IMG/VR virus record: IMGVR_UViG_3300044631_002422
Span: 84,314 to 148,313 of that record
Strand: one strand, 5' to 3'
Source of the DNA: a virus
DNA: 64,000 bases
The translations under genes and the position numbers were made by a program. The notes below the pieces were generated by a model. The model had not been told where the DNA came from. It saw only the letters and a list, made by a program, of their open reading frames with translations, and ran no database searches. This document shows, piece by piece, positions 8,814 through 29,141 of the stretch. Each line of letters begins with the position of its first letter. The stretch's first letter is position 1.

Positions 8814-9810
8814 TGAAGTCTTTTTGAAGATTGATGATTTATTAGAAAAGCTTGAAATTGACTATGTTAAATACCCAAATAGACTAGCGTTTCCATGTCC
8901 AGTGCATGGAGGCGATAATCCAGAGGCTTGTTGTATTTTTACTGATGGAATTAGTAATCAGGGTAATTGGGCTTGTTGGACTCATTCCTGCCATGAAGAA
9001 TATGTAAATAATCTTTTTGGTTTTGTTCGGGGTTGTTTATCATACAAACAAAACAAACCAGTTTCCATGATTGAAACATCTAATTTTTTATGCGACTTTA
9101 TATCGAAAGATATCGACGAATTGGAAGTTAAGCAAGTAAGAGAATCTAAGAGTCTTGATATTTTCAATAGAAAAATAACGAGAGCTACATCTAACATTTC
9201 TCGCGAAGAAATAAGAGATAGAATACAAATACCTTCTGAATATTACATTCGCAGAGGATACTCGTCTGAAATTCTTAATTTATTTGACGTTGGAGAATGT
9301 TTGACAGAAAATCAGCCAATGAGTGGTCGTGTAGTCGTTCCAATTTATGACGAGGGCTCTAACTATGTAGGATGCGTTGGAAGATCAATCAAAGAGCATA
9401 TAAATCCAAAATGGCTACATAGTAAAAACTTCACTAAGAATGTTTTGTATGGAATGAATCTTGCAAAAGAATGTATATTGAAAACAAGAACGGTCGCAAT
9501 TGTCGAAGGACAGGGCGATGTATGGAGGGCGTTTGAAGCTGGATTAAACTTTACTGTAGGAATATTTGGATGTAGTTTAAATGACGATCAATTGATATTA
9601 CTAGAGCAAAGTGGAGCTTTAAATGCCATAATACTAACAGATCAAGACGAAGCAGGAAATAAAGCGGCAGAGCAAATAATGCATAAATGCGGTCGTAGAT
9701 TTAACTATATAAGACCAAACTGGTCAACAAAAGATATTGGTGATTTAACAGTCGAACAAATTAAAACAGAAATATATCCTCAGTTGAAAGGACTTGTTGA
9801 TGAAAACTAG
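8728..9810 (+). CDS. dnaG: DnaG-like primase (true start possibly TTG near 8767)
   Basis: CPVHGGDN zinc finger, GRVVVPI, VGR, TOPRIM VEGQGD...DQDEAG and KDIGD. Confidence 0.9.
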   Translation: MKFTKTIKSDKKVLKQTTLTKEKISSLCDEVFLKIDDLLEKLEIDYVKYPNRLAFPCPVHGGDNPEACCIFTDGISNQGNWACWTHSCHEEYVNNLFGFVRGCLSYKQNKPVSMIETSNFLCDFISKDIDELEVKQVRESKSLDIFNRKITRATSNISREEIRDRIQIPSEYYIRRGYSSEILNLFDVGECLTENQPMSGRVVVPIYDEGSNYVGCVGRSIKEHINPKWLHSKNFTKNVLYGMNLAKECILKTRTVAIVEGQGDVWRAFEAGLNFTVGIFGCSLNDDQLILLEQSGALNAIILTDQDEAGNKAAEQIMHKCGRRFNYIRPNWSTKDIGDLTVEQIKTEIYPQLKGLVDEN

Positions 9811-10696
9811 AATTTTGGCATTTGCTGGAGCTAAACAAGCTGGCAAATCTACTTTTTCAAATTTTTTACATGGGTATCAGCTTCGCGCACAAGAAGTGGT
9901 ACAAGATTTTGCAATTGCTGAAAATGGCAAACTTGTGGTTAAAACGGAAGTCATTGAAGATGGAAAAACTCAAATTGGCGAAACATTTCTAGATACATCA
10001 AGAAAAGACCCTGATTTCGTAGAGTGGGCAATGTATAATATGTGGCCATTTGTAAAAAAGTATTCGTTTGCCGATACATTAAAAGAAATTGGTATGACGT
10101 TGTTCGATTTGAGTTACGAGCAGGTTTACGGCTCGGAGGCGTACAAAAATCAATTAGTTGAACATCTTCGATGGGAAAATATGCCCGGAGTTCTCACGGA
10201 TGAACTTTGTGATATTTATCAGGATGTGTGTAGTGCAAATGCAAATCCTAAAGATTGGCCCTTGGAATACTCTAAACTAACTTATCACGCCGCAGGCCCA
10301 ATGACAGTGCGTGAATTCCTCCAGTTTTTTGGAACGGAAGTATGTCGTAAGATTTACTCGCCAATATGGGTAAATCGAACCATCAAAGATATACAGCAAG
10401 AAGAGCCTTTGCTTGCAGTTGTGGATGACTGTAGATTTGAAAACGAGATACGGGCCATACAAAAAGCTGGCGGAAAAGTTATCGGTTTAACACGCAAGCC
10501 GTCTAAAGATGATCATGGAAGCGAACGTGTTATTGAGCAACATTCTGATATATTAGATGCTATTATCGATAACCAAAACATGGAAATTCTAGATGTTTGC
10601 AAATCTATCATTACTCAATTGGATGAGTGGGGTTGGCTTGGAGCGCAAACAATTACAAACAATACAAAAGGACTTCACACCATAAAGGGTAAATAA
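9800..10696 (+). CDS. deoxynucleoside monophosphate kinase-like
   Basis: GAKQAGKS, SFADTLKE, REFLQFFGTE and DDCRFENE motifs. Confidence 0.85.
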   Translation: MKTRILAFAGAKQAGKSTFSNFLHGYQLRAQEVVQDFAIAENGKLVVKTEVIEDGKTQIGETFLDTSRKDPDFVEWAMYNMWPFVKKYSFADTLKEIGMTLFDLSYEQVYGSEAYKNQLVEHLRWENMPGVLTDELCDIYQDVCSANANPKDWPLEYSKLTYHAAGPMTVREFLQFFGTEVCRKIYSPIWVNRTIKDIQQEEPLLAVVDDCRFENEIRAIQKAGGKVIGLTRKPSKDDHGSERVIEQHSDILDAIIDNQNMEILDVCKSIITQLDEWGWLGAQTITNNTKGLHTIKGK

Positions 10697-11718
10697 TGAT
10701 AGTTACATACATCAGAAGTTCTTCGTATAACAATTACGATTACTGCGAAATGCAGTATTTTATAACTTACGTTCTTGGTCATACATCGACTTCTGGTAAA
10801 AAGGCACAGCTTGGCACTATTGTCCATAAAGTTATGGAGTGCCTTGCTTCCTGCAAAAAACATCTTCAAGATAATCAAGATGAAAAAAGTTTGTTTATCA
10901 ACGACGACGCTTTGGGCAAAATAAACTTTACTCCCAAAACTCTATTTACAAAAGCTTTTGTTTTTAAGTTACTTGATCAAAGCTATGAATACTATACAGC
11001 AAATTGTACTCATAAGTATATTACGGCAGATAAAAAGTTCTGTAAAGAATCAACTGATATTGCTTTGGATTACAACGGGGGTCAATTTGATCCTAGAAAT
11101 AGAAACATAATTCAAGCAGAGCCTCATTTTGATATACCAATCACTCAAGAGTGGGCAAAATTTAAGTACATGATTGACGGAAAAGAAGTTGAAGGGCAAT
11201 TAGCTATAAAAGGAACAATAGACCTTGTAACCAAGGTAGATGATGGTATAATCGAGGTGATAGACTGGAAGACTGGACAAAGAAAGAACTGGGCGACTGG
11301 CGAAGAAAAAACTTACGAAAAACTAATTGATGACCCGCAATTACTTTTGTATAATTATGCAATATCTCAACTTTATCCTGAATATGAACAAGCAATAATG
11401 TCGATATTTTTCATACGAGATGGAGGCCCATTTAGTATGTGCTTCGACAAATCTGATCATGATAGATTTTTAGAGATGCTTGAAAAAAGATTTACAGAAA
11501 TCAAAAATAACACAAGGCCGAATTTATGTTCTCGTAATCGAACAAGTTTTAAATGCACAAGACTTTGTGATTTTTATAAAAAAAATTGGCCCGGAACAAA
11601 TGTTTCGATGTGCGAACATGTTGAAGAACATTTAAAAACTTTTGGACACGATACTACTATAGAGAAATGCACAAGAGAAGGACATAACATTGGATACTAC
11701 CAAGCTCCCGGAGGTTAA
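10696..11718 (+). CDS. PD-(D/E)XK exonuclease (Cas4/RecB-like)
   Basis: GTIVHKVME, GTIDLV, IDWKTG, QLLLY; N-terminal Cys plus C-terminal Cys cluster. Confidence 0.85.
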   Translation: MIVTYIRSSSYNNYDYCEMQYFITYVLGHTSTSGKKAQLGTIVHKVMECLASCKKHLQDNQDEKSLFINDDALGKINFTPKTLFTKAFVFKLLDQSYEYYTANCTHKYITADKKFCKESTDIALDYNGGQFDPRNRNIIQAEPHFDIPITQEWAKFKYMIDGKEVEGQLAIKGTIDLVTKVDDGIIEVIDWKTGQRKNWATGEEKTYEKLIDDPQLLLYNYAISQLYPEYEQAIMSIFFIRDGGPFSMCFDKSDHDRFLEMLEKRFTEIKNNTRPNLCSRNRTSFKCTRLCDFYKKNWPGTNVSMCEHVEEHLKTFGHDTTIEKCTREGHNIGYYQAPGG

Positions 11719-12466
11719 AATAGTTCTTTTAACTGAGTTTTATAAGTCAAAATTCGAAGAAAGAAACAAAGAGTTGCTGGACTCTTTGCAAAGAAATATT
11801 GATTGTGAACATATCAAAAAAATTGTTTTGTTTTATGAAAATAGTCTAGACGAATATCCAGATATAGCATTCAGCCCAAAGATTGAAATTGCTTATACAA
11901 AATCAAGAATGAAGTTTGCAGACTATTTTAATTACTACAATAGTAACCTATCTGGACATATTTGCATAATTGCCAACAGTGATATCTACTTTGATGATTC
12001 AATAAAACATATTCACAACATCAGAGAAAATGAATTTTTATGTATAACCAGATGGAATCGAAATGAGCTTCAGGGACATGACGAATATAGTCAAGATGTG
12101 TGGGTTTTTAGAAAACTAATACCGCAAAAAATGGTTGATTGTTCAGGTTTTTACCTTGGCAAACAGCAATGCGATAATAGAATATCTTTTGTGGCGATGA
12201 AGAATGGATTTGATTTAATTAATCCGTGCCATTTAGTCAAATGTCAACATCTACATAAAGACCCAGATAAAATCACTTACAACAAAAAAGAGAACTTTAA
12301 AAATTTACTATATTTGTCAACGGTTAAACCGTCTGATAAAATTGAATATACCGAGAATAATGTTTGTTCATATTGGGCAGATTCTGGTGGAACTAGGTAT
12401 TGCGGATCATGGTATGTTAACTTTTGCAGGAATGAATTAAATGACTTGGAATCCAATCAATTGTAA
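11690..12466 (+). CDS. putative GT-A fold glycosyltransferase-like protein
   Basis: IIANSDIYFD (DxD-like), SQDVW, CDNRI and HLH motifs. Confidence 0.6.
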   Translation: MDTTKLPEVKIVLLTEFYKSKFEERNKELLDSLQRNIDCEHIKKIVLFYENSLDEYPDIAFSPKIEIAYTKSRMKFADYFNYYNSNLSGHICIIANSDIYFDDSIKHIHNIRENEFLCITRWNRNELQGHDEYSQDVWVFRKLIPQKMVDCSGFYLGKQQCDNRISFVAMKNGFDLINPCHLVKCQHLHKDPDKITYNKKENFKNLLYLSTVKPSDKIEYTENNVCSYWADSGGTRYCGSWYVNFCRNELNDLESNQL

Positions 12467-14018
12467 AACACATTTTAGCTTGCAGCACGGTTTTTGCAAA
12501 CCTGATAAACTTTCTAAAAAATGCGCTGATTATGGTTACACATCTTGCGGAATCGCAGATTTTGGAACCTTGTCTGGTGCAGTTGACTTTCATCAAAATT
12601 GCACTAAATATGGTATCAAGCCAATAATTGGGTGCGAATTTGATGGATACATTCTTTATGCTAAAAACAAAAACGGATGGTTTGACTTGGTTAAATATGT
12701 ATCAAACCAAACACTGGATGTTTTAAAAGAAATAGCAAAAAATGGAAATGTACTTTGTGTAACACCATCTGTAAACGGTTTTGCTAATCTATTTAAATCA
12801 AACCATATTCAACTAGATTATCCAAGTGAAGCTATCTATTATGTGGAAAAAAATGATGCAGATTGTCATAGAATTATGCTTTGTGGTAAGCTAAAAACAA
12901 CACTAAAGAAAATTAAATTACTGGAAGTAAACGAGTACAGCCAGTTTTTTGATGATAATGACAGATGGTATTTACCATCCAATGATGAAATTCTAGACAG
13001 GTCTAAAAATATCGCTAAAATAGTTGACGCTTGCGAAGCTTACGAGCTTGCTGGACCTCCTATGCTTCCTGCTTTTGAATGTCCAACTGGCTATGATGAA
13101 GACGAGTATTTGACTGAACTTTGTAGAAGTGGCTGGAAAAATAAATTAGTTCCATTCAAAAAAATATCAACAGAAGAACAAAAGAGTATTTACGCAGAAA
13201 GAGTAAAGCATGAACTTAAGGTTATATTCAAGGCTAAACTTTCTGGTTATTTCTTGATTGTTCAAGATATCATTCGATGGGTTAAATCAAAAGGTTGGCT
13301 TGCTGGTCCGGGACGAGGCAGTGCCGCAGGATGCCTTATTTCTTATCTACTTGATATAACTGAAGTAGATCCAATAGAATATGATTTGATCTTCGAAAGG
13401 TTTTATAATGAAGGAAGAAACACCGATGGTAACGTGGCTATTCCAGATATTGATATGGATATACCAGCCGAACACCGCGACGAAGTTATTGATTATATCA
13501 AACAAAAATATGGAGCGTCTAACGTATCTCAAATGATAACATTTGGAAGACTGCAAGGCAGAGCGGCCATAAAAGAAGTTCTTAGAATCAATGAGGCTGT
13601 GTCATTCGCAGAAATGAATGCTATAACAGATAGTATTCCTGACGAAGCTAAAATTTCTGACCAGTTAGAGCTTATGGAAGAAAAGTCAATCATCAAGTGG
13701 GCGTTAGAAAATGAACCAGATAATTTAAGGAATTGGTGCTTCTATAATGACAATGAAAAGCTTGATGGTCCTTTGGCGAATTTGTTTGAACAAGCTATAA
13801 AAATAGAAGGAACAAATAAGTCTCAAGGTAAACACCCTGCTGGTGTTATTATATCGAAACACAAGCTAAATGAAGTTTGTCCAATGACAAGTGATAAGTC
13901 TGGAGATTCTATTGTTGCTTTTGAAATGAATGCTTTGGAATACCAAGGCCATATAAAATTTGATGTTCTGGGAATTGATTTACTTTCTAAGATAATGGAG
14001 ATTTGTGAAAATGACTGA
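12441..14018 (+). CDS. dnaE: DNA polymerase III alpha (DnaE), part 1: reduced PHP plus palm/thumb
   Basis: GIKPIIGCE, YFLIVQD, GPGRGSAAG, FERF, PDIDMD, GKHPAGV and KFDVLG; ends just after the third catalytic Asp. Confidence 0.95.
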   Translation: MTWNPINCKTHFSLQHGFCKPDKLSKKCADYGYTSCGIADFGTLSGAVDFHQNCTKYGIKPIIGCEFDGYILYAKNKNGWFDLVKYVSNQTLDVLKEIAKNGNVLCVTPSVNGFANLFKSNHIQLDYPSEAIYYVEKNDADCHRIMLCGKLKTTLKKIKLLEVNEYSQFFDDNDRWYLPSNDEILDRSKNIAKIVDACEAYELAGPPMLPAFECPTGYDEDEYLTELCRSGWKNKLVPFKKISTEEQKSIYAERVKHELKVIFKAKLSGYFLIVQDIIRWVKSKGWLAGPGRGSAAGCLISYLLDITEVDPIEYDLIFERFYNEGRNTDGNVAIPDIDMDIPAEHRDEVIDYIKQKYGASNVSQMITFGRLQGRAAIKEVLRINEAVSFAEMNAITDSIPDEAKISDQLELMEEKSIIKWALENEPDNLRNWCFYNDNEKLDGPLANLFEQAIKIEGTNKSQGKHPAGVIISKHKLNEVCPMTSDKSGDSIVAFEMNALEYQGHIKFDVLGIDLLSKIMEICEND

Positions 14019-14241
14019 CAATCGAGACGTTTATAAGGCTGTAATTTTTGACGGTGCTATCATAGAATCAAACGGAGTGTCTTTGTGCAACCTTGAAGAT
14101 GCTATGCGAGGAAATTCTTTTATACCGCGAGCAAAGTACCAAGTGTGGTCAGATCGGCACAAGTTTCATGAGTTGTTCTTTAGTATTGATGAAGCTGTAG
14201 AAAAATTCTTAGAACTCAAGTCTAGAAAGAATTGGAACTAA
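14011..14241 (+). CDS. hypothetical protein
   Basis: Short ORF overlapping the end of dnaE part 1. Confidence 0.6.
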   Translation: MTDNRDVYKAVIFDGAIIESNGVSLCNLEDAMRGNSFIPRAKYQVWSDRHKFHELFFSIDEAVEKFLELKSRKNWN

Positions 14242-14242
14242 T

Positions 14243-14665
14243 ATGGAAATAGAAGTTTCTAATGGTGAAGTAATTGACAAATTAACTATTTTGAATATAA
14301 AGTCTGAGAAAATTAAAGATCAAGAAAAACTTGAGAATATCCATCGCGAATTGCATTTTCTAAGGATGAAGTCTACCGAGTGGTGGAGTTATTGGGAAAA
14401 AGAGATACTTCCTTTATTTGATAGTTTACTATCGGTTAATCGGCAACTTTGGGATATTGAAGATAAAATACGCGAGCTAGATAATGAGGTATTTCTACCA
14501 CGTTTAGATGCTGCTATACAATCTGTATACCGTTTTTCTAAAGTTTGTGAATATATAGAGTGCGCAAGAATGGTTTATACGTTGAATGATAAACGATCTA
14601 AAATCAAACGCGAAATCAATGAAATTACCAAGTCTGGAATAATAGAAGAAAAATCTCATTTTTAG
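14243..14665 (+). CDS. DUF6165-like protein
   Basis: VSNGEVIDKLTILNIK...LWDIEDKIR...ARMVYTLNDKR...EEKS pattern. Confidence 0.7.
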   Translation: MEIEVSNGEVIDKLTILNIKSEKIKDQEKLENIHRELHFLRMKSTEWWSYWEKEILPLFDSLLSVNRQLWDIEDKIRELDNEVFLPRLDAAIQSVYRFSKVCEYIECARMVYTLNDKRSKIKREINEITKSGIIEEKSHF

Positions 14666-14675
14666 AAAGATTTAT

Positions 14676-15362
14676 ATGAATCATCGGGATATAATCGTGT
14701 TTGATTTTGAAACGACTGGCAGGAATCCATTAAAGTGTCAACCAACACAAATTGCCGCTGTAGCTATACATGCTAGAAAGTTGACAATACAACCCGGAGG
14801 AGTTTTTGAAAGTAATATACGTTGCATAGTAGATGACGAAAAGGCTATAGCGGCTGGTTTTGACCCAGTAGAAGAAGGCGCTCTTGAAGTTACTAGAAAA
14901 ACAAGAGATCAAATATCTAAAGGACCATCGCCAAAAGTAGTATGGCAAAAGTTCACCCAGTTTTGCGAAAAATTTAACTTCAACAAGACCTCATTTTCTG
15001 CCCCAATAGCGGCTGGTTATAATATCAATAGTTATGATATGCCGATTGTACAAAGAATGTGTGAAATGTATGGTCCTGTAGATGAAAAAACTGGCCGTCA
15101 AAAAATATTCAATCCTATCTTTTCAATGGATCTTATGCAGCACATTTACTGCTGGTTTGAAAACAATGCCGATGTTAAAGGTTACAGCATGGACTATCTA
15201 AGAGACTATCTTGGAATGTCAAGCGAAAAATCACACGATGCATTGCAGGACGTTAAAGATACAGCTAATATACTAATAAGGTTTCTGGTTATGCAAAGAA
15301 ACCTTTCGAAGAAAATTAAATTTGAGAAAGCTTTTGCGAATGGCGATCTTCACATAAAATAG
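14676..15362 (+). CDS. DEDDh 3'-5' exonuclease (DnaQ/epsilon-like)
   Basis: VFDFETTG, AGYNINSYD and HDALQD motifs. Confidence 0.9.
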   Translation: MNHRDIIVFDFETTGRNPLKCQPTQIAAVAIHARKLTIQPGGVFESNIRCIVDDEKAIAAGFDPVEEGALEVTRKTRDQISKGPSPKVVWQKFTQFCEKFNFNKTSFSAPIAAGYNINSYDMPIVQRMCEMYGPVDEKTGRQKIFNPIFSMDLMQHIYCWFENNADVKGYSMDYLRDYLGMSSEKSHDALQDVKDTANILIRFLVMQRNLSKKIKFEKAFANGDLHIK

Positions 15363-15370
15363 GAATCCGA

Positions 15371-16189
15371 ATGTTTGATATTAATAATTTTGACGACTCC
15401 AAAGTTTGGGACTTGATTTGCGAAGGAGATACTAAAGGTATTTTTCAGCTTGAATCAAATCTTGGTAGGTATTGGGCAAAAGAAACTAAGCCGCGCAATA
15501 TAAAAGAATTAGCGGCTTTGATTAGTCTTATTCGTCCCGGAACTCTGCTTGCTAGAGATGCAAATGGTAAAAGCATGACTCAGGTTTATGCTGATCGTAA
15601 GAATGGTAAACCCAATTCGCCGGTAGAATATCTGCACGATTCTTTGGAGCCAATACTCAAAGAAACATACGGCGTTTTGGTTTATCAAGAACAATCTATG
15701 ATGATCGCGCAAAAACTGGCAGGTTTCGATTTGAAAGAAGCTGACGCACTCAGAAAGGCTATTGGAAAAAAGAAAGCCGATCTCATGGAGAAAGTAAAGA
15801 AAGCTTTTCTAGAAGGCGCGGCTAGTCAAGGAATCATTACTAAGGAAATTGCAGAGGAATTGTTTTCTTGGATTGAAAAATCTAACCGTTATGCATTCAA
15901 TAAATGCTTGTCTCCCAAAACTATTGTAATCACAGAAAATGGAGAAAAGTGTTTAGATGAATTAAATATAGGCGATAAAGTTCTTGCTCCTAAAAATTTG
16001 AACGAAGATGAATTTGTTGAAGTTATAGATATAATTGATAATGGAATAAAAGAAGTTGTTGAAATAACTATGGAAGATGGTAAAAAAATTATATGCACAT
16101 TAGACCATAAATTCCTTTGTTCCGATGGAAAAGTTCATAAATTGATAGAAATTTTAGAGCAGAATTTGGAAATAATGTGTATAGATTAG
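15371..16189 (+). CDS. dnaE: DnaE part 2 (fingers) fused to split-intein N-half
   Basis: GIFQLES, LIRPG, LKETYGVLVYQEQ, ADALRKAIGKK and YAFNK, then intein CLSPKT. Confidence 0.95.
   Translation: MFDINNFDDSKVWDLICEGDTKGIFQLESNLGRYWAKETKPRNIKELAALISLIRPGTLLARDANGKSMTQVYADRKNGKPNSPVEYLHDSLEPILKETYGVLVYQEQSMMIAQKLAGFDLKEADALRKAIGKKKADLMEKVKKAFLEGAASQGIITKEIAEELFSWIEKSNRYAFNKCLSPKTIVITENGEKCLDELNIGDKVLAPKNLNEDEFVEVIDIIDNGIKEVVEITMEDGKKIICTLDHKFLCSDGKVHKLIEILEQNLEIMCID
15905..16189 (+). mobile_element. split intein N-half (94 aa)
   Basis: Block A CLSPKTIV...LNIGDKV; block B IICTLDHKF; acidic; ends at a stop codon with no blocks F/G. Confidence 0.92.
16176..16183 (+). promoter_or_regulatory. TGTGTATA motif upstream of the homing endonuclease
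   Basis: Same motif as upstream of structural genes; ~35 nt before the ATG, which has an AGGAG RBS. Confidence 0.45.
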
Positions 16190-16218
16190 TATGAGATTTA
16201 TTAACAGGAGTCATACTA

Positions 16219-17124
16219 ATGAGTATAAAAAAAGAAGATTGGCATATATGCAAAATGTGCAATAAAAAAATTAAAGATCTATCTAAAGAGCTTGGCGGCA
16301 GCGGTATATACAGCACAGAAGTATTTGCCAAACATTTAAATCAATTTCATAAAATTACTCCAGAAGATTACTTTGAAAAAATATCGAATAGACCAAAATG
16401 TTCATGTGGAATATGTGACTCAAATGTCGATTTAACTTGGAAAGGCAAAACCAATTTCAACTGGAGACAATATAAATGCGGAAGAAATGAAGGTGTTAAA
16501 AAATGGAGCGAAGAAGCAAAGAAAACTAGATCCGGTAAAAATAATCCAATGTATAATAAAATACCTTGGAATAAAGACAAAACCAAAGATAACTCAGAAT
16601 CTCTAAAAATTGTTTCTCAAAAAATGAGTGGACGAAGCGTGTCTGAAGAGATTAGGCAAAAACAATCAAAATCAGCTAAATCTCGTTTGAGTCATGGTCA
16701 TACAGGCTTTAAACATTCCGAAGAAAGTAAAGATAAAATGCGCCAATCGACTTTATCAATGATAAAGAATGGAAGATTTAAACACACAAAAACCAAACCG
16801 CATTTAGAATTTGCCAAGATATTGTCTGAATTAAATATTGCTTTTCAAGAAGAATATGTTATTAAATATTGGTCATTTGATTTTTTCTTGACTGATTTCC
16901 ATGTATTAATAGAGGTAGATGGAGATTATTTTCATTCAAATCCAAAGTTTTATAACAAACCAAAAACCAAAACTCAAAAAATAAACTCATACAGAGATCA
17001 AAAGAAAAATGATTTTTGCGAGTCTAATGGCTACGCTTTGATTAGAATATGGGAAGACGATGTTATCAACAACAAAGAGAAAATATTATGCAGCCTAAAA
17101 GAATTGTTCATGTTCGGACAATAG
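16219..17124 (+). mobile_element. free-standing homing endonuclease (Zn finger + NUMOD3 + Vsr-like/EDxHD domain) between the intein halves
   Basis: CKMC...HLNQFH, CSCGIC, PWNK, HSEESKDKMR, FDFF...IEVDGDYFHSNP...LIRIWE. Confidence 0.88.
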
Positions 17125-17201
17125 GAAATATTCCAACAATGGATATTGAAGTCAATAGCGATTCTCATATTTTTTATGGAGATGGTATCGTTACATCAAA
17201 T
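17088..17201 (+). mobile_element. split intein C-half (38 aa)
   Basis: Basic start, block F TMDIEV...H, block G IVTSN, Ser+1. Confidence 0.9.
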
Positions 17202-18227
17202 TCACATGCTATTTCATATGCAATCAATGCTTATTGGTCCGCTTATTGTAAAACCTACAAACGTAAGAAGTTTTATGAAAAATATCTCAATAGGTCAGAT
17301 AGAAAGCCTGATCCAGATATAGAGAAGAAACAATTAATAATGGATGCAAAGCGGTGCGAGATAGAAGTTTTACCGCCCAGATTACAACATTTACACAAGG
17401 ACTTTACTAGGCATCCTAGCAAAGATATTATTTACTATGGATTGTCACATGTTAAACATGTTGCTGAAAAGGAGTGTGACAAACTCATTGGTTTATCAGG
17501 TGTTGAAAAGTATAACTGGATGGATTGCTTGATCAATATCGTTCATGGTTTAAATATTAATAAAAGCGCCACCGTAGCGCTTATTTCTGTTGGTGCGTTT
17601 AATGGAATCAACAATACAACAAGTAGACAAAAGATGTTGTACGAGTTTGATAGCTGGAAGCATCTTACTGCCAAAGAACAAGAAGCAATTGCAAATGCCT
17701 ATAATTCAGGTTCGCAAAAACCAAAAGATTTAACGCAGGCAATAGAGTGGCTTATTACAAATACCAAGATTAACTCCAGAAGATTGCAATCGGTAGAAGA
17801 TATAAAAAATTCTCTAAAAAATCCTTTCTATGATATCGACGATAAACCAGAAACAATTGCCGCAGATGAAGAAAAATATATGAGTTGCTCCTTAACATGT
17901 AGTAAAGTTGATGGTTTAGACCTAAATACAGTGATAAATATGTGTCAAGATGTGTCTAGCCATTCTATAATAGGTAAGGTAACTCTTGCTGTAGAAATTG
18001 TGCGCATAAAGATTGTAAAGACTAAAAAGGGTAAAACTCCCGGTCAGGAAATGGCTTTTCTGACTGTCGAGGATGGAAGTGGATCTTTAGACTCAATAAC
18101 CATTTTCCCAGAAGCTTACGATAAATACAAAGACTTACTAGTGGAAAATAATACTGTTCTTTTGATTGGCGAGATATTTAAAAAAGATAAAGAAGCTATC
18201 ATCGTCAATCAAGTATCGCAAATTTGA
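17088..18227 (+). CDS. dnaE: split-intein C-half fused to DnaE part 3 (HhH + OB fold)
   Basis: MQPKRIVHV...MDIEV...HIFY...VTSN|SHAISYA; YGLSHVKHV; KTKKG...MAFLTVED OB fold. Confidence 0.93.
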   Translation: MQPKRIVHVRTIGNIPTMDIEVNSDSHIFYGDGIVTSNSHAISYAINAYWSAYCKTYKRKKFYEKYLNRSDRKPDPDIEKKQLIMDAKRCEIEVLPPRLQHLHKDFTRHPSKDIIYYGLSHVKHVAEKECDKLIGLSGVEKYNWMDCLINIVHGLNINKSATVALISVGAFNGINNTTSRQKMLYEFDSWKHLTAKEQEAIANAYNSGSQKPKDLTQAIEWLITNTKINSRRLQSVEDIKNSLKNPFYDIDDKPETIAADEEKYMSCSLTCSKVDGLDLNTVINMCQDVSSHSIIGKVTLAVEIVRIKIVKTKKGKTPGQEMAFLTVEDGSGSLDSITIFPEAYDKYKDLLVENNTVLLIGEIFKKDKEAIIVNQVSQI

Positions 18228-18237
18228 AAGGTAATAT

Positions 18238-18570
18238 GTGAATAAATGTCATTTTTTAGGAAAATTAACACGCGAACCAAATGTTAAAAAAGAAAACAAT
18301 GTTTCGGTAATTGATTTTGAATTAGAAATAGAAGAGTTTAGAAAAGATAACAATAAAGATAAAGTTAGGTCTGTAATATATTTGAATTTTGAAGCTTGGG
18401 ACACGGCGGCTGAAGCTATTGAAAAGTATGCTAAAAAGGGAAGCTTAATGGCAATAGAGTCAGTAGCAAGAAACTATTTTTATGAAGATCCGAATAATCC
18501 AGAAGCTGGCGAAATAATTGAAACGTATTTTCGAGTAACTAATTTTAAAATCCTTGGATTTGGAACATGA
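18238..18570 (+). CDS. single-stranded DNA-binding protein (SSB-like OB fold)
   Basis: NKCHFLGKLTREP...EAWDTAAE...KKGS pattern; lacks an acidic tail. Confidence 0.75.
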   Translation: MNKCHFLGKLTREPNVKKENNVSVIDFELEIEEFRKDNNKDKVRSVIYLNFEAWDTAAEAIEKYAKKGSLMAIESVARNYFYEDPNNPEAGEIIETYFRVTNFKILGFGT

Positions 18571-20201
18571 GAAAAAAAAGGATACTTTGGGTAAACGATG
18601 CGTCTTGGAAAGGAACTGGTTATGCCGTTTACTCCAATGAGGTATTGTCTAGGCTTAATAAGGTTGAAGATTTTGAAGTTGCTGAAATAGCTTGTTATGC
18701 AGACAAAAATGATCCAAAAATAAAAGAAGTTCCTTGGAAGGTTTACCCGAATAGACCCTTGGAAACGGACCCTTCGTTTGAAAGTTATGTAAAAAATCCA
18801 AGCTCAATTTTTGGCGAAAATTCTTTCAACGAAGTTCTTTTAGACTTCATGCCGGATATAGTTATGGATATACGAGACTGGTGGATGTTTGAATATCAGC
18901 AACGTTCGCCATTTCGTGACTTTTTTCATTGGGCTATAATGCCAGCCGTTGATGCTGCTCCTCAAAATCCTCAATGGTTGAATACCTATGCTTCCGCTGA
19001 TAGCGTTTTTGGGTATTGTGAATTCAGTAAAAAGACGTTGCAAAATCAATCGGACAAGATAAACTTTATAGATATAGCATCCCCAGCAGCCAATGCCGAA
19101 GATTTCAGACCAGTCGAGAATAAACAACTTCACAAAGATGCTATGGGACTAGATTCTGGTTCTATAATAGTAGGAACTGTGATGCGTAATCAACGCAGGA
19201 AACTTTATCCAGACCTATTTAAAGCGTTTAGAATGTTTCTTGACAAAACTAAAAACCCAAATGTCTTTCTTCTCTGCCATAAATATTATCCAGATATTGG
19301 CTGGGAAACTCCTGTACTACTTGATATGTTTGGCTTAAGCAATAGAGTGTTATTTTCATATAAGTGTCAAGAGTGCAAAGATATCAGTGTTGACTTCTTT
19401 AAAGATTCAGTAACTCATTGTACAAAATGTAAAAAATTTAGCAAAAGGCTGGTTGGCGTTGACAACCCTATGAACAATCAAGAGTTGAGCAAAGTATACA
19501 ATCTTTTTGATGTATATGTTCAGTATGCCAACAGCGAAGGATTTGGTATGCCGCAGTTAGAAGCTGCTTATTGCGGAGTTCCAGTAATGACTATTTATTA
19601 CTCTGCAATGAAGTCAGTGGCAGATAATATTGGAGCTATACCAATACATCCAATCCAATATTCAATGGAATGCGAAACTGGATGTTATCGAGCTATACCA
19701 AACAATCAGCAATTTGTAGAAAAGTTAGAAGATATATTGAACGCCGATTTCAGATCGTTTGGTTTAAAAACCGCCGAGTTGGCTAGGAATCATTATAGTT
19801 GGGATAAAACTGCTAAAGTGTGGATAGACTACTTTAAAACAGTTCCAATGAAGAATCATCTTGATACATGGAAGTCTCCGCCTAAAATATTCGAACCAAC
19901 AACAACGATACCAAATGATATTGTTGATTTAAAAGATCAAGTTAATTATATATTTAGATACGTTCTTTATAAACCAGAATGGATTGGTGGGTATTTTTGG
20001 TCAAAAGTATTGAAAGATATTACATTTGGATACCGCGTAAGAAATTCTGAAGATGATTATTACTTCAATGAATCACATATGCCAGCAGTTGATAAGTATG
20101 AAAAGTTTAATTTTGTTATGGCAGTAAACGAGCTAACAAATCTTAGAAACCAATGGAACGAATGGGAAAAATTAAGGAGTGAATACATTGCAAGACTTTA
20201 G
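18567..20201 (+). CDS. GT-B (GT4-like) glycosyltransferase with CxxC insert
   Basis: TGYA, VMRNQRRK, YNLFDVYV, EGFGMPQLEAAYCGVP. Confidence 0.88.
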   Translation: MRKKRILWVNDASWKGTGYAVYSNEVLSRLNKVEDFEVAEIACYADKNDPKIKEVPWKVYPNRPLETDPSFESYVKNPSSIFGENSFNEVLLDFMPDIVMDIRDWWMFEYQQRSPFRDFFHWAIMPAVDAAPQNPQWLNTYASADSVFGYCEFSKKTLQNQSDKINFIDIASPAANAEDFRPVENKQLHKDAMGLDSGSIIVGTVMRNQRRKLYPDLFKAFRMFLDKTKNPNVFLLCHKYYPDIGWETPVLLDMFGLSNRVLFSYKCQECKDISVDFFKDSVTHCTKCKKFSKRLVGVDNPMNNQELSKVYNLFDVYVQYANSEGFGMPQLEAAYCGVPVMTIYYSAMKSVADNIGAIPIHPIQYSMECETGCYRAIPNNQQFVEKLEDILNADFRSFGLKTAELARNHYSWDKTAKVWIDYFKTVPMKNHLDTWKSPPKIFEPTTTIPNDIVDLKDQVNYIFRYVLYKPEWIGGYFWSKVLKDITFGYRVRNSEDDYYFNESHMPAVDKYEKFNFVMAVNELTNLRNQWNEWEKLRSEYIARL

Positions 20202-20778
20202 TTGGATAATCGACCAAATAAATAAAGGCAGCATAAACCTAGATACGATTCGTATCGAGAGCAATCTAGCTGTAAGAGATGGTTTGTTTAAAGAAATATT
20301 GGACTCTTTTAATGAACAGCCAATCAAAGTTTTTCAAATTGGAGCAATAGAATCTCTAGAAAATAAATTCAGGATTGGCTCTGGTTGGAGCGACTTATTT
20401 TTTGGTGTTTATATTAAAAAATATGGCGGAACCCTTGTAGTTGTAGATATATGCTTGAACCATATAGCTAATTCAAGTTTTGTATCTAGCCAGATAGGTT
20501 ATGAAACAAATTTTATTTTTGGAGATGCAAATAATTTTATTTCTACTGGATATGACATATACTATCTCGATGGTGCTGACATATCTTATGCGGAAGATGC
20601 TTACGAGCAAACATTGTCACAATTCAAGAAAATTGAAGGTACAAATTCTGTTGTTCTTGTTGATGATGCTCCAAGCAAGGGCAAGGCTTTGCTCGATTAC
20701 CTAAAACAAAAAAACATACCATATACATACCATAATTTTGGTTCTGGAATGATCAAGATTGATATGAGGTCAAAATGA
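20179..20778 (+). CDS. class I SAM methyltransferase-like
   Basis: FQIGA, VVVDI, YYLDGAD and VLVDD motifs. Confidence 0.55.
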   Translation: MNTLQDFSWIIDQINKGSINLDTIRIESNLAVRDGLFKEILDSFNEQPIKVFQIGAIESLENKFRIGSGWSDLFFGVYIKKYGGTLVVVDICLNHIANSSFVSSQIGYETNFIFGDANNFISTGYDIYYLDGADISYAEDAYEQTLSQFKKIEGTNSVVLVDDAPSKGKALLDYLKQKNIPYTYHNFGSGMIKIDMRSK

Positions 20779-21854
20779 AAGTTCTTTATATTGGACACTA
20801 TAGAGATGGAACAGGATGGGGAAATGCAGCTATAAACAATATTTTAGCCTTGGATTCTGTTGGGGTTAAAGTTGTTCCGCGAGCCATTACATACGAGGCT
20901 CAAGATAGGTTATATCCAAATAGAATCCGAGAATTGGAAGATAACTCAGAGTCTGGTTGCGATATTGTGATTCAACACACGTTGCCAAATAACTACTGGT
21001 ATAATTCTAGTTATAGAAATATTGGCTGTATGACTGCCGAGTCTTCAAATTTTAAATCAACAGGATGGCAAAACTATTGCAATATAATGGACGATATTTG
21101 GGTTTCGAGTAAAGTGACAAAAGATATATGCAAACGAAGCGGAGTCAAAACACCAATAGATATTGTTCCTTATGCTATAGACTTAAGTAAATATGAAAAC
21201 CCATCTGGCGAACAAATAGAAGAACTAAAAAACAACTTTACTTTTGGTTTTGTTGGCGAGTTTATTGAGCGTAAAAACATAAAAGCTCTTATCCAAGCTT
21301 TTCATATGGAGTTTGATCCAAGAGAACCCGTTAACTTGTTGATCAAAACCTCAAAAAGAGATTTAAATGGAATTCAGGCTTATTTTAATCATATCAAACG
21401 AGGGTTAAAAATAAGACAAAATTACATAGAAGAAATAATCATAACTGGAATCATGCCAGAAAATGACTACATATCTGTTTTATCGCAAGTAGATTGTTTT
21501 GTTATGCCGAGCAGAGGAGAAGCTGGTTGTATTCCATCGCTTGAAGCTATGGCTCTAGGAATACCCGTTATTTGGACTCATGGCATAGGAATGGACCACG
21601 CAATTGGTACAGCGGTAAAATCCGATAACGTCCCTTGTTTTGGGGCAATAGAAACTCTTAATGACTTAGACACTGCGGAAGCTACATGGAAGGATATCGA
21701 TGTAATAGAATTGACAAATGCTATGAGAAAAATGTATGAAAACATAATTGTCAAAAATAACAAAGAAAACATGGCAAAACAATGCAAAAATCAAGCAGCG
21801 AGATATTCTCACAAAGAAATAGGAAAACTTATGCTGGAGGTTTTAAATAAATGA
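20775..21854 (+). CDS. GT4-like glycosyltransferase
   Basis: ERKNI, DCFVMPSRGEA...LEAMALGIPVI. Confidence 0.88.
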   Translation: MKVLYIGHYRDGTGWGNAAINNILALDSVGVKVVPRAITYEAQDRLYPNRIRELEDNSESGCDIVIQHTLPNNYWYNSSYRNIGCMTAESSNFKSTGWQNYCNIMDDIWVSSKVTKDICKRSGVKTPIDIVPYAIDLSKYENPSGEQIEELKNNFTFGFVGEFIERKNIKALIQAFHMEFDPREPVNLLIKTSKRDLNGIQAYFNHIKRGLKIRQNYIEEIIITGIMPENDYISVLSQVDCFVMPSRGEAGCIPSLEAMALGIPVIWTHGIGMDHAIGTAVKSDNVPCFGAIETLNDLDTAEATWKDIDVIELTNAMRKMYENIIVKNNKENMAKQCKNQAARYSHKEIGKLMLEVLNK

Positions 21855-22879
21855 CCGCTAGAGCCAATGTCAGAGCAGTTCGTTCATTTATGGGGAAGAA
21901 TAAACCAAAAGACAAGTTGAATATTTTGACTTTTCCAACCCATGAACGCTATGAAGAAAATCTTTGTAGAACCGGGCATAATTTTTACGCATTCAACTAT
22001 GGGAAAACTTGGAATACAACGTATGCTCCAGTTCCTGAAAACTATCATATAATCAATAGTCTTCCTAATTGGCTTGATATTGATTTAGTTTTGAGTCACA
22101 CATCATGCGAACGACTCCAAGTAGCACATGATTTACTTTCCGAAACTTTAGGAATATCGGACGGTGTATCAGTTCCAATACTGAGGCATTGTCACATTCT
22201 TCCGACTGCTGGACTTGAGAATCAAGTAGAAAATTACAAAAACATAAAAGTATTTCGCGACTCATTTATTTCAAAGTATAGCATGAATGCTTGGGGATAT
22301 ACAGACGATGAAGCTTTTGTTGTAAATCATGGAATTGATACAGATTTTTGGAAACCGGACAATTCGATAAAACGCGACAATGTTTTATTGTCAGTAGTAA
22401 ACGATTGGCCAAACCGTGATTGGTGTTGCGGGTTTAACTTGTGGAGACGTACAGTTAAACTAGGAACTGAAAACCAATTACCAGTTAGTGTCTTTGGAGA
22501 TAGTCCGGGATTATCAATTGCAGCAAAAGATAAACAGCATTTACGACAAATATATCAAAATTCAAGTATCTTTTATAACACATCGCTGTTTTCACCAATT
22601 CCAACTGTGTTAATGGAAGCAATGGCTTGTGGCTGTGCAATTATTTCAACAAATAATTGTATGATACCAGAAGTTATAGAGCATGGCTACAATGGTCTTT
22701 TATCAAACGATCCAGACGAGCTAACTTCATATTGCGAATTGTTGTTAAATAAACCAGAGTTCGCAAGAAGGCTTGGAAATAACGCTATGTTGACAATACT
22801 AGAAAAGTATAATATGCAAAATTTTATCGATAATTGGAACACATTACTTTACAATACAGTTGGAGATTTTAGATGTTGA
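21851..22879 (+). CDS. GT4-like glycosyltransferase
   Basis: HGIDTDFW, MEAMACGCAIIST, PEVIEHGYNG. Confidence 0.88.
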   Translation: MTARANVRAVRSFMGKNKPKDKLNILTFPTHERYEENLCRTGHNFYAFNYGKTWNTTYAPVPENYHIINSLPNWLDIDLVLSHTSCERLQVAHDLLSETLGISDGVSVPILRHCHILPTAGLENQVENYKNIKVFRDSFISKYSMNAWGYTDDEAFVVNHGIDTDFWKPDNSIKRDNVLLSVVNDWPNRDWCCGFNLWRRTVKLGTENQLPVSVFGDSPGLSIAAKDKQHLRQIYQNSSIFYNTSLFSPIPTVLMEAMACGCAIISTNNCMIPEVIEHGYNGLLSNDPDELTSYCELLLNKPEFARRLGNNAMLTILEKYNMQNFIDNWNTLLYNTVGDFRC

Positions 22880-23319
22880 TATACCTAACAGGAAGAGATT
22901 TGGTCTTATCAGTGCCAGAAGCTTACTCAAAGCATAACATATATCGTGACGCTGCTTCGTTATCGCGGAACGTGCTTCAAAATGAAGCTACTGAAATTAT
23001 TTGTCAAGATTTTCTTTGCTGCTTCAACTGGAAAGACCTTCCAAAAATAATCGATTTAATCTTAAGTAAAATGAGAAAAGGTTGCAAGTTGACTATAATA
23101 GAAAAAGACTTGAGATTAATTTCTAGACAAGTTTACAAAGATTTATACAATACAGAACTTTTAAACAAAAAAGTGTTCGAATTTGGCCAAATAGTCAAGT
23201 CTTTGTTTTCTTTAGAAGATATAATTGGACATATAACTGATACCGATCAATATATTGTAACATCTAAGGGCTTCATAGATGCAACAAGTTTTAGCCTAAT
23301 AGTGGAGAGAGTTAGATGA
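22873..23319 (+). CDS. hypothetical protein (possible degenerate methyltransferase fold)
   Basis: 148-aa ORF; KMRKGCKLTI resembles the methyltransferase LKPGG strand. Confidence 0.55.
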   Translation: MLIYLTGRDLVLSVPEAYSKHNIYRDAASLSRNVLQNEATEIICQDFLCCFNWKDLPKIIDLILSKMRKGCKLTIIEKDLRLISRQVYKDLYNTELLNKKVFEFGQIVKSLFSLEDIIGHITDTDQYIVTSKGFIDATSFSLIVERVR

Positions 23320-24116
23320 AAATAGTTACGCATTGCGAAGATTGTATATTCGCTAAATTAAATAAAGAAAATAAACAAGAATCGTGTTCACTTGATAGGC
23401 CGAATAAACTTGGTATTGAAAAGTTAGAGGGTGATTATTTCGAGTTGCGGAGGTATTGCAATGCGTTTCGTCCACTGGAGTGGGTTCAACAATTAGAGTT
23501 TGAAGAGTCATTAAATCCAGAAAATGCAGTTCTACAGGAAGTATATCCAAGAATTGGTTTTTTTGTAAAGCTAAATACAAATGAACCAAACGCAATAGAT
23601 GCTTTGGATCTAACTATAAATTCTATCACTAAAATTCATGGTAAACAGGCATCGTATGTCGTTGTAATTAATGATAAAGTTGAATACAATGAAGAAATAT
23701 GGGGACTCTTTATCAAGTACTTTGGCGAACAATCACCGGTAACAAAATACCATATTGTACAAATTGAAGAAAAGCCAAATAAAATAATTCAAATAATTGA
23801 CGAAGCTTTCGGCAAGGCGGAAAATAGTTGGATAATGTGTACATCGAGCGGACTTAGAGTTAAGCCGGAAACGCTTGATAGGCTTCATGAAATTCTTAAC
23901 ATAGAAATGAAGCAAATCACAATGATAGAACCAATTGATGATTTTAACGGACTTATGTTTCCGGCTTATTTATTCAAGTTCTTGAATGGAAATAAAACAA
24001 AAGTTTTCAGTGATGAAATAGCTGACAGTAATGAATTCATTGAAAAAGTAAGAAACGCAGAAGAGCGTGGACAAACAAAAACCATATTTAACTGGAGAGA
24101 GTTTTATGGGAAATAA
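23316..24116 (+). CDS. hypothetical protein (possible degenerate GT-A fold)
   Basis: 266-aa ORF in the glyco-operon with N-terminal CEDC. Confidence 0.6.
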   Translation: MKIVTHCEDCIFAKLNKENKQESCSLDRPNKLGIEKLEGDYFELRRYCNAFRPLEWVQQLEFEESLNPENAVLQEVYPRIGFFVKLNTNEPNAIDALDLTINSITKIHGKQASYVVVINDKVEYNEEIWGLFIKYFGEQSPVTKYHIVQIEEKPNKIIQIIDEAFGKAENSWIMCTSSGLRVKPETLDRLHEILNIEMKQITMIEPIDDFNGLMFPAYLFKFLNGNKTKVFSDEIADSNEFIEKVRNAEERGQTKTIFNWREFYGK

Positions 24117-24840
24117 CTTTCCAAATGTTGCTATTGTTTGCGCAAATTACAACTATGGTAAATTTATAGTTGCTGCAATGAAAAGCATTATGAGCCAAAC
24201 ATATAAAGGTAAAATTCGTCTTTATGTTGTAGATGACGGATCTACCGATAACTCATGGGAATTAATATCTGAATATGCCGCGTTATTTTCTGATAAAATT
24301 TTTCCAATCAGAATACAAAATTCTGGCGCTAGTGCTGCTAGAAATTTAGCAATTGAATACGCTATTGAATGGGCTGAAATCATAGGTATACTTGATGCTG
24401 ATGACGCATACATGCCAAATAAAGTCGCGGTCTTAGTTAACAAACTTGTAGAACATGACGAAATAGGCGTTGCTTACGGCGATTATATGAATGTATTTCC
24501 AGAGTATTCTAAACTAGAATTCAAGTCATCTTACAGTAAAATAGGTCTTCTACAAAAGTGTATGGTTCATAGTAATTCTTTGATAAAAAAGAAATACTTA
24601 CAACAAGCAAAACTTCCAAACGGAGACTTCTTTGATAGAAATCTTCATGGACCGGCAAGCAAAGATTTTATTGGATGCACCGAAGATTATGACTTATGGA
24701 TAAGATTGTCTAACTTATGTATCATAACACACGTTCCAGAATGTTTAGCTATTGCCAATCAACATGGAAACAATCAATCAATGAAGATGACTGCTGAAAT
24801 TTTCAATCAAAACACACGAACAATGATGGAAAGAAAATGA
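24106..24840 (+). CDS. GT2 glycosyltransferase
   Basis: NYNYG, SQTY, VVDDGSTD, ARN, LDADD and EDYDLW motifs. Confidence 0.92.
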   Translation: MGNNFPNVAIVCANYNYGKFIVAAMKSIMSQTYKGKIRLYVVDDGSTDNSWELISEYAALFSDKIFPIRIQNSGASAARNLAIEYAIEWAEIIGILDADDAYMPNKVAVLVNKLVEHDEIGVAYGDYMNVFPEYSKLEFKSSYSKIGLLQKCMVHSNSLIKKKYLQQAKLPNGDFFDRNLHGPASKDFIGCTEDYDLWIRLSNLCIITHVPECLAIANQHGNNQSMKMTAEIFNQNTRTMMERK

Positions 24841-25547
24841 GTAGATTTGTTACCAATATAAGAAAAAAAGTAGTTCAAAATGATCAGTCAGATGGTATAT
24901 CGGTAGCAATACTTTCCGCTGGCTGTGGAAGTAAAATCAAGTCATATGAACCAAGAAGTTTGCTAAAAATAAACAACGAAGAATTTTTGATAGATCATCA
25001 ACTTACAACTATAGCTAATTTTTTTGTAAAACCGGAAATCATTACTGTTGTTGGTTGCTATGCAAACAAGGTAATCAAAAAAATTAAAGGTAAATGCAGA
25101 GTAGTTGAAAATCAGATACATGAAGAAACTAATGCTTCAGAAAGTATGAGACTTGCGTTCAACAATTCAAGCATGTCAAGTTTTATGTTTATACATGGAG
25201 ATATTCTGTTTGATACAAATTGTTTAGATGCAGAATACTCTCATTCGTTTATAATTACAGATTCCAAAAAAATGATAGGTGAAAATGAAATAGGAGTTAC
25301 TATTGTTGATAATAAAGCTTCGATAATGTCATACGGACTTCCTATAAAATGGGCGCAAATAGCGTTTTTTACTGGCAAAGAGTTAAAAATACTAAATAAC
25401 ATCTTTCAAAGATTTGAAGACAAAGATAAAAAGAAACTTTCATTTGAAATAATTAATGATGTTATTTCTAACGGGGGAGTGTTTCATTGTTATGAACCAC
25501 ATAAGATGAGAATCAAGGAAATTGATACAATAAAGGATATAGAATGA
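24837..25547 (+). CDS. sugar/choline-phosphate nucleotidyltransferase-like
   Basis: ILSAGCGSKI...PRSLL, HGDILF and EIDT motifs. Confidence 0.75.
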   Translation: MSRFVTNIRKKVVQNDQSDGISVAILSAGCGSKIKSYEPRSLLKINNEEFLIDHQLTTIANFFVKPEIITVVGCYANKVIKKIKGKCRVVENQIHEETNASESMRLAFNNSSMSSFMFIHGDILFDTNCLDAEYSHSFIITDSKKMIGENEIGVTIVDNKASIMSYGLPIKWAQIAFFTGKELKILNNIFQRFEDKDKKKLSFEIINDVISNGGVFHCYEPHKMRIKEIDTIKDIE

Positions 25548-28395: not shown

Positions 28396-29138
28396 TTAGT
28401 GTAGTAACTGGCACTTTGAATAGATATGATTATCTTTACGGACTTCTAAAAAATACTATTTGGGCTGACGATAGAATAGAATTAGTTTTAGTTGATGGTG
28501 GAAGTACAGATGGTACAATAGAATTAGGACGAGAGATAGCCTCAAAAGAACCAAGACTTAAATTTATAGAAGTTGGACATAGAAGTTCTTACCCACATTA
28601 TATGAATCTGGGTATAAAAAATGCCTCGCATGAGTTGATTTGCCAATGGAACGACGATGTTTTACTTTGCAACAAATGGTCAGAGGCTTTAGATGAAATT
28701 GATGATCATGATGTTTACATATTTAATTGGAAAACTGGATCTTTAGAAGACACGCACAATCCTGAATGGCTCAAGTGCAACAGCATACGCGACAACGGAT
28801 GGATTGTAATAAACAATGCCGAATACAAATATCCACAATCCATAGGCGAGCAATACAATGAAGTATGCGTAAACTACGGAATTTACAAAAAGGATGTGTT
28901 TAGAAAATATGGTCTTTACAATCCAGAGTATCAATACTACTGTGCAGATGGAGAAATGGCCATGCGATCAAAATATCATGGGGCAAAATTTAAAACTTGT
29001 TTAAACATAAAGGTTTGTGTGCTTCCAGCGGAAAAAAGAGCCATTATGACTAATGAGGATGTTCAAAGATACAATTTGGACTGCTTTCATTTTAACTATA
29101 AAACACCTAGCTATTTCAATGGTGAGTATCTGGAGTAA
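28392..29138 (+). CDS. GT2 glycosyltransferase
   Basis: ISVVTGTLNR, VDGGSTDGT, NLGIKNA and WNDD motifs. Confidence 0.88.
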   Translation: MISVVTGTLNRYDYLYGLLKNTIWADDRIELVLVDGGSTDGTIELGREIASKEPRLKFIEVGHRSSYPHYMNLGIKNASHELICQWNDDVLLCNKWSEALDEIDDHDVYIFNWKTGSLEDTHNPEWLKCNSIRDNGWIVINNAEYKYPQSIGEQYNEVCVNYGIYKKDVFRKYGLYNPEYQYYCADGEMAMRSKYHGAKFKTCLNIKVCVLPAEKRAIMTNEDVQRYNLDCFHFNYKTPSYFNGEYLE

Positions 29139-29141
29139 ATT

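Follow-up and report, generated by a model that had tools for sequence, protein, structure and literature searches.

Introduction

Enzymes encoded in separate pieces are known from several systems. In the 'fractured genes' (Dassa et al. 2009, PMC2677866), an N-extein with its N-intein (IntN), a spacer of 27-51 nucleotides (nt), an endonuclease gene and the C-intein (IntC) with its C-extein follow each other on one strand. The endonucleases are of the GIY-YIG or of the Vsr-like/EDxHD type, a 5' hairpin has been described, and three incomplete DnaE loci from the Global Ocean Sampling (GOS) data carry Vsr-like endonucleases at insertion points unlike the cyanobacterial one (PMC2677866). Intein-free splits of phage enzymes, as cited in the same paper, include T4-like gp43 (43A/43B) and Aeh1 NrdA. 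Furthermore, the T4-like group 2.2 jumbo phages encode a 'minimal' DNA polymerase III (Pol III) alpha module as two standalone proteins that are predicted to reconstitute (Iyer et al. 2021, PMC7824862). The subject of the present work is a DnaE-type (C family) Pol III alpha subunit that is encoded as three open reading frames (ORFs), P1, P2 and P3, all on the plus strand of a 64,000-nt stretch of DNA (the window, bases 84,314-148,313 of the 148,313-bp IMG/VR record IMGVR_UViG_3300044631_002422, an uncultured marine phage known from a metagenome assembly). The finished enzyme would, with good probability, consist of P1 held non-covalently to a trans-spliced P2-P3 chain, a reading with which every in silico test that was applied agrees, as had been anticipated in the initial annotation.

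The break between P2 and P3 resembles the published fractured genes in the same-strand order of the parts, the Vsr-like endonuclease, the hairpin, the phage-like DnaE host and the non-cyanobacterial insertion point, with spacer (29 nt), IntN (94 amino acids, aa) and IntC (38 aa) all within the published ranges (PMC2677866). The GOS DnaE loci, likened here by their description, differ in being incomplete read assemblies for which no second, intein-less break was described. With the cyanobacterial split DnaE of Ssp and Npu the locus shares a naturally split intein rejoining DnaE and a homologous IntN (E-value, E, 6.6e-8); in both, the intein is divided at the same point and ends in ...SN. The locus differs from the cyanobacterial one in the insertion site, FNK/SH, 4 residues downstream of what we take to be the cyanobacterial site, Y/CFNK (presumably AEY/CFNK in Ssp DnaE), in the +1 residue, which is Ser and not Cys, in the adjacency of the two halves, which lie 0.9 kb apart with the endonuclease gene between them, and in the additional plain fission between P1 and P2.

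As to the latter, the gp43 and NrdA splits, as far as they are cited in PMC2677866, also place an essential enzyme in two genes with one or more other genes between, to give a working or presumed non-covalent complex. Unlike the P1/P2 break, which holds the proofreading partner and is family-wide, those breaks, as cited there, hold a homing endonuclease and concern few phages. The jumbo phage module (PMC7824862) likewise obtains the catalytic part of a C-family polymerase from two standalone proteins, but this module is without the PHP and further domains, it is encoded by two distant genes, and the phages also have a family B polymerase, whereas here DnaE is of full size, no second polymerase accompanies it, and the exonuclease gene lies between its halves. 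The single-chain DnaE proteins of sister phages (P0121-P0150; loci L069, L071 and L073) are collinear with the pieces and lie in a syntenic neighbourhood; unlike the split form they are encoded by one ORF, with the exonuclease gene upstream.

In the literature, searched in full text, neither a full-size phage DnaE cut at the palm-fingers coil with an exonuclease gene inside nor the three-piece DnaE combination was found described. The initial annotation had regarded the double break as unusual. To this, three corrections are to be made: the fission is family-wide, the split intein with its endonuclease has been published for DnaE in fractured genes (PMC2677866), and the three-piece combination is widespread in metagenomes. 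What the window adds is a second break of a different kind, evidence of the mobility of the intein element, and the non-monophyly of the split state.

Anatomy of the three-piece DnaE

P1 matches the Pfam families PHP (E 1.3e-16) and DNA_pol3_alpha (E 1.6e-72) and aligns to residues 13-564 of the E. coli alpha subunit, its residue 517 corresponding to E. coli residue 564. All three catalytic Asp residues are present, in PDIDMD and KFD, aligned to E. coli D401, D403 and D555. The protein ends 14 residues past KFDVLG (...IDLLSKIMEICEND, then the stop), so that the earlier description of P1 as holding the three Asp residues and stopping right after this motif was correct in the first part and slightly loose in the second. 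The whole P2 ORF (15371-16189) begins with MFDINNFDD at an ATG preceded at 6 nt by AGGA, and comprises the extein followed in frame by the 94-aa IntN; it matches DNA_pol3_finger (E 1.9e-45) and aligns to E. coli residues 591-758, with P2 residue 7 corresponding to E. coli 591. By phmmer, P1 and P2 match the solved alpha subunits 2HNH and 2HPI with E 2e-54 and 1e-31, respectively. The whole P3 ORF, from the ATG at 17088 to 18227, consists of the 38-aa IntC and 341 aa of extein, and the intein site falls between E. coli K758 and S759. Overall, the domains and motifs of the three ORFs are collinear with those of E. coli alpha, and the Pfam matches are spread over all three (table 1). The initial annotation had described a DnaE in three ORFs with two kinds of break, namely a restart of P2 at MFDINNFDD beyond three intervening genes, with no intein motif at that junction, and a split intein at YAFNK/SHA between P2 and P3; each of these features was recovered at the positions indicated there.

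Table 1. Coordinates, in the window, of the DnaE pieces, the genes and elements that separate them, and the adjacent SSB gene.
Feature	Position	Strand	Family match or other basis
P1, DnaE piece 1 (525 aa): PHP, palm, thumb and first fingers helix	12441-14018	+	PF02811, PF07733
orfA, small conserved gene (76 aa from ATG 14011; 76-78 aa)	14011-14241	+	ATG overlaps P1 stop (ATGACTGA)
DUF6165 gene (140 aa), variable gap cargo	14243-14665	+	PF19662, E 1.5e-7
DnaQ/epsilon-like 3'-5' exonuclease (228 aa)	14676-15362	+	RNase_T, E 3.9e-15
P2 extein (178 aa), fingers as far as ...RYAFNK	15371-15904	+	PF17657
N-intein (94 aa, CLSP...TLDH...IMCID) and stop	15905-16189	+	Hint, Intein_splicing
RNA hairpin, 10-bp stem in 29-nt spacer	16185-16220	+	minimum free energy -13.3 kcal/mol, z -3.97
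Free-standing Vsr-like (EDxHD family) homing endonuclease (301 aa)	16219-17124	+	PF04480 (DUF559), E 1.3e-6
C-intein (38 aa, ...MDIEVNSDSHIFYGDGIVTSN)	17088-17201	+	sequence; conserved ...SN/SH junction in four alleles
P3 extein (341 aa), SHAISYA..., remaining fingers, helix-hairpin-helix (HhH), oligonucleotide-binding (OB) fold	17202-18227	+	PF14579, PF01336
SSB gene, same replication module	18238-18570	+	PF00436, E 4.2e-13

The break between P1 and P2

The P1 stop and the P2 ATG are separated by 1,352 nt that contain orfA, the DUF6165 gene and the DnaQ-like exonuclease gene, the translation of which shows the motifs DFETTG, NINSYD and HDALQD. The exonuclease stop lies 8 nt from the P2 ATG and the non-coding spacers within the gap do not exceed 11 nt, so that there is no room for a structured RNA at this position. 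A permissive Rfam scan (E<=1) returned only three chance-level snoRNA or riboswitch matches and no intron family, Pfam found no Hint domain in P1, and, again by Pfam, none of the three genes of the window's gap is a homing endonuclease gene (orfA has no family, the others being DUF6165 and RNase_T). P1 ends approximately 4 residues, and P2 starts approximately 2 residues, from sequence that is contiguous in fused relatives, which does not fit an intein-mediated break.

The comparison was extended to 51 related IMG/VR loci, 41-89% identical in P1, 42 of which have enough DNA for the gene order to be read. The order P1, exonuclease, P2 was found in all 42, as were the P1 stop and the P2 start, and the in-frame P2 ATG with its Shine-Dalgarno sequence is conserved among relatives. 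The catalytic motifs PDxDxD and KxD are retained in 48 of 48 P1 ORFs, which stop within a few residues of ...LLSKIMEI.... By protein search, standalone P1 homologues of 520-540 aa number in the thousands in marine metagenomes. The P1/P2 break is a true, old and heritable gene fission, not peculiar to this genome but usual throughout a very large phage family.

The distance from P1 end to P2 start varies from 678 to 2,997 nt across the 42 loci, and it is occupied by one to five ordinary genes, either the exonuclease gene alone or the exonuclease gene with glycosyl- and methyltransferase genes. The shortest gaps (approx. 680-700 nt, L027-L031) are filled by the exonuclease gene alone, and that of L024 contains an extra glycosyltransferase-like gene and two methyltransferase-like genes. 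Given such varied content, the gap behaves as ordinary intergenic space for cargo. The DUF6165 gene recurs, among the relatives, only in L001, with a remnant in L024. Joining of P1 and P2 at the RNA or translation level, by an intron containing ORFs, RNA trans-splicing or ribosomal bypass, is extremely improbable: no sign in its support was found, and it is contradicted by the lack of any Rfam intron match at the threshold given above, by gap gene boundaries that overlap or lie 8-11 nt apart, by the variable length and ordinary gene content of the gap, by the conserved in-frame stop and ATG with Shine-Dalgarno sequence, and by the presence of the same exonuclease gene outside dnaE in fused relatives.

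As a separate observation, the P1/P2 gap appears to be a hot spot for cargo, since glycosyltransferase- or methyltransferase-like genes flank the exonuclease gene in some relatives (L024, positions 9774-12567; L003 and L006).

The survey of relatives for fused or two-part forms that the initial annotation had proposed yielded both, and the fused kin are syntenic. Three fused relatives (P0121-P0123) are 1052 aa long and 55-58% identical to P1 over its full length, others (P0124-P0150) range from 990 to 1519 aa, with the intein-free ones at approximately 1100-1148 aa, and in syntenic relatives the fused DnaE measures 1052-1141 aa. The fused loci L069, L071 and L073 share a neighbourhood of DNMK, PDDEXK_1, exonuclease, dnaE and glycosyltransferase genes, and in the fused contigs the exonuclease gene is directly upstream of the single dnaE ORF. 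In the fused ORFs the P1 and P2 homologies are in frame and only two codons apart; the cut is thus a clean one that has neither removed sequence nor introduced tags. In fused L073 an orfA homologue was found just upstream of the exonuclease gene, from which it follows that the two states differ in the position of the P1-coding segment relative to the orfA-exonuclease cassette, upstream of it in split forms and downstream in their fused kin. The identities to the window's P1 and exonuclease are 89 and 94% for L001, 58 and 64% for the fused L069, 53 and 52% for L027, and 42 and 34% for L035. Thus, the identity of the exonuclease tracks that of DnaE in both states, which suggests a partner passed on by vertical inheritance and not a gene inserted recently.

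The position of the cut was examined on an AlphaFold2 (AF2) model of the fused protein P0121 (predicted local distance difference test, pLDDT, 90.9; predicted template modelling score, pTM, 0.86). The strand bearing the third Asp (residues 514-520) is followed by a helix (521-532), a coil (533-542) and a second helix (543-550), and in all split forms the end of P1 and the start of P2 fall inside that coil or at its borders (P0121 residues ~529-546). In the model, then, the first break cuts a single surface coil of the palm-fingers region.

The history of the split was approached by two trees, one of 70 rows for P1 by itself and one of 35 rows for the full-length DnaE, both built by quick IQ-TREE runs with a bacterial outgroup. 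Both agree in placing, after the outgroup, a split clade (L032-L051), a fused clade and then a mixed group composed of split L027-L031, fused P0121-P0123 and the window's split clade, with values of 96-100 in the Shimodaira-Hasegawa-like approximate likelihood ratio test (SH-aLRT) for the key branches. Constraining the split forms to one clade costs 70 log-likelihood (lnL) units, with p 0.0009 in the approximately unbiased test (p-AU; 19 rows, LG+G4). The split state is therefore not monophyletic and must have changed at least twice; the changes may have consisted of independent fission, re-fusion or recombinational transfer of the arrangement.

An insert of approximately 100 aa in the PHP region, between P1 residues ~88 and 133, was noticed in the basal split clade L033-L051 (the P1 ORFs of which are approximately 630 aa long), in L073 and in many fused relatives; it is absent from the window's clade.

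The break between P2 and P3

At the second junction the sequence reads RYAFNK/CLSPKT...TLDH...IMCID, with a stop, on the P2 side, and M...MDIEVNSDSHIFYGDGIVTSN/SHAISYA on the P3 side, with IVTSN as the last intein residues. IntN matches the Npu and Ssp DnaE and the gp41-1 inteins with E from 6.6e-8 to 1.5e-6. For IntC the likely start is the ATG at 17088 and not that at 17049. The hairpin of the spacer takes in the IntN stop and reaches two bases into the endonuclease AUG; it bears an AGGAG Shine-Dalgarno sequence near its top, and its equivalents in L054 and L055 are weaker. The endonuclease, the ORF of which overlaps the start of IntC by 37 nt, matches PDB entry 3R3P, a 'mobile intron protein' of the intron-encoded I-Bth0305I type (E 5.2e-5). 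By its sequence features the P2/P3 break is a typical fractured gene, with a split intein and a free-standing homing endonuclease.

The intein motifs are intact, in that four alleles with 55-81% identity all retain Cys1, TLDH, the terminal Asn and Ser at +1. Splicing of P2 to P3 is a prediction from these residues, and the match of IntC to known inteins is weak (gp41-1, over the whole length, E about 0.5), which would leave some ground for a three-chain non-covalent enzyme in which the intein halves dock P2 to P3 and splice poorly or not at all, with FNK/SH interrupted. Such an arrangement is unlikely, since the four residues or motifs named above (TLDH being the TxxH of block B) are conserved in alleles that are divergent, and since the intein site falls within an invariant motif (Y704, F706, N707 and H710 in alignment A1) that an unspliced insert of approximately 130 aa would disrupt. 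Fractured-gene inteins with Ser at +1 splice fast, and the Npu and Ssp DnaE inteins presumably share an ...ASN ending.

The predicted trans-splicing element has a patchy distribution. The P2 and P3 exteins are directly contiguous in 36 intein-less loci, namely L001, the closest relative (89% in P1), and 35 others. The element is present at the same site in L055 (75% in P1) and L054, with IntN 79-81% and endonuclease 67-68% identical to those of the window, and the distant L074 (44% in P1, 30% in the P3 extein) shares this three-piece layout, its IntN being 55% and its endonuclease 52% identical. L080 is without the element, though approximately 91% identical to L074 over the P2 extein. Absence from the closest relative and presence in distant ones fits a mobile element, and the intein with its endonuclease is probably such an element, acquired later than the first break. 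A search with P2 and IntN gave 371 homologues; the best 120 of the 371 are mostly 265-317 aa long with 96-100% query cover, the intein included, and the three-piece form is therefore widespread in metagenomes.

Three further observations concern this region. L074 and L080 are both carried by the 221-kb contig IMGVR_UViG_3300024509_000007, and also by 3300024358_000009, as two syntenic DnaE modules, which could reflect a chimeric two-strain assembly or a real duplication. A two-piece relative (L029, positions 10331-12679) has a contiguous cis intein with an HNH-type endonuclease domain (ILRPG/CVSGDT...IVHN/CLKS), within the fingers at a DnaE site other than that of the window. Within the P3 coding sequence, at 17564-17582 of the window, a perfect GC-rich inverted repeat (AAGCGCCACCGTAGCGCTT) was found, terminator-like on both strands and probably due to chance.

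Proposed assembly and genome setting

According to the proposed mechanism, P2 and P3 would be joined after translation by trans-splicing of the canonical split intein, restoring FNK-SH and yielding a 519-aa polypeptide with fingers, HhH and OB fold. This C-terminal half would bind P1 non-covalently through the native palm-fingers interface, so that the Asp triad of the active site would come from P1 and the fingers from P2-P3. The epsilon-like exonuclease would probably join the complex, and its assembly with the polymerase would be helped by the close coupling, in translation, of P1, orfA, the exonuclease gene and P2. Homing of the intein with its Vsr-like endonuclease into the FNK/SH site would be a later event. 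We infer association of the pieces, splicing and polymerase activity from sequence features, and three considerations weigh against the scheme: the split forms carry no added dimerisation tags; a search for a clamp with PF00712 gave no match, clamp and clamp loader not being searched beyond this family; and the ratio of nonsynonymous to synonymous substitution rates (dN and dS), with dN far below dS in every piece, IntN, endonuclease and IntC included, is of qualitative value only, dS being saturated.

The source record carries direct terminal repeats, and its completeness is rated at 100%. The complete genome contains one DNA_pol3_alpha (PF07733) match, that of P1, and a genome-wide family search found no family A or family B polymerase; because of this, DnaE is the only recognisable DNA polymerase of the phage. 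The same facts bear on the idea that the pieces are decaying remnants and that the phage uses the host polymerase. The result of the clamp search would agree with decay, but the low dN, the catalytic Asp residues kept in all 48 P1 ORFs, the thousands of full-length homologues and the lack of another polymerase make it very unlikely.

That the layout arose by misassembly or from a chimeric contig, as could be feared for a sequence from a metagenome assembly (the initial annotation had named misassembly as a possible objection), has a negligible probability: the same layout recurs in independent contigs from independent samples (L054, L055 and L074), the window's P2-IntN protein is present on 11 contigs, and the contig itself has terminal repeats and is rated complete.

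On the preferred reading of P1 associated with a spliced P2-P3 chain, a broader proposal can be made for the family, to which we give about an even chance. The palm-fingers coil of C-family polymerases would be a natural seam, and the replicase core an obligate multi-chain assembly (P1, exonuclease, perhaps orfA, and P2-P3) produced from one coupled operon; the seam would have been opened or closed at least twice by the P1 segment crossing the exonuclease cassette, and the homing split intein would add a third chain in many members.

If these proposals are correct, a full-size replicative Pol III alpha that works in pieces marks a permissive split site at P0121 residues ~533-542 (roughly E. 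coli 572-585), of use in engineering and in work on palm-fingers communication. With its natural fused, two-piece and three-piece versions in syntenic genomes, the family would lend itself to the study of how genes split and fuse and of what an intein costs in an essential gene. The FNK/SH split inteins, with Ser at +1, lengths of 94 and 38 aa and many diverged alleles, are candidates for an orthogonal split-intein toolbox. At present, annotation pipelines label the pieces 'DNA polymerase III subunit alpha' or 'hypothetical protein' and leave the architecture unmarked.

Accessory and neighbouring genes

orfA is conserved in 18 relatives, one of them the fused-DnaE genome L073, and it accompanies the exonuclease gene in split as well as fused genomes; it may encode an accessory subunit of the polymerase core. 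Its AF2 model (pLDDT 83.7) is of mixed alpha/beta type, and Foldseek found no match to it in the PDB (best E 1.0). A theta/HOT-like subunit was considered for orfA and rejected on account of this fold and of the Foldseek result. The corresponding comparisons with the fused locus L069 were negative, in that orfA gave no profile match to its 68-aa ORF and the DUF6165 protein no alignment with its 165-aa ORF.

In tblastn and blastn searches against 50,697 phage records the best protein identity was 37%, with no match at the DNA level, so that no close cultured phage was found, and in a scan for promoters and terminators the counts were not above those of shuffled sequence. The replication module is directly followed, at 18567-32653 of the window, by a run of glycosyltransferase genes that is syntenic in fused and split relatives.

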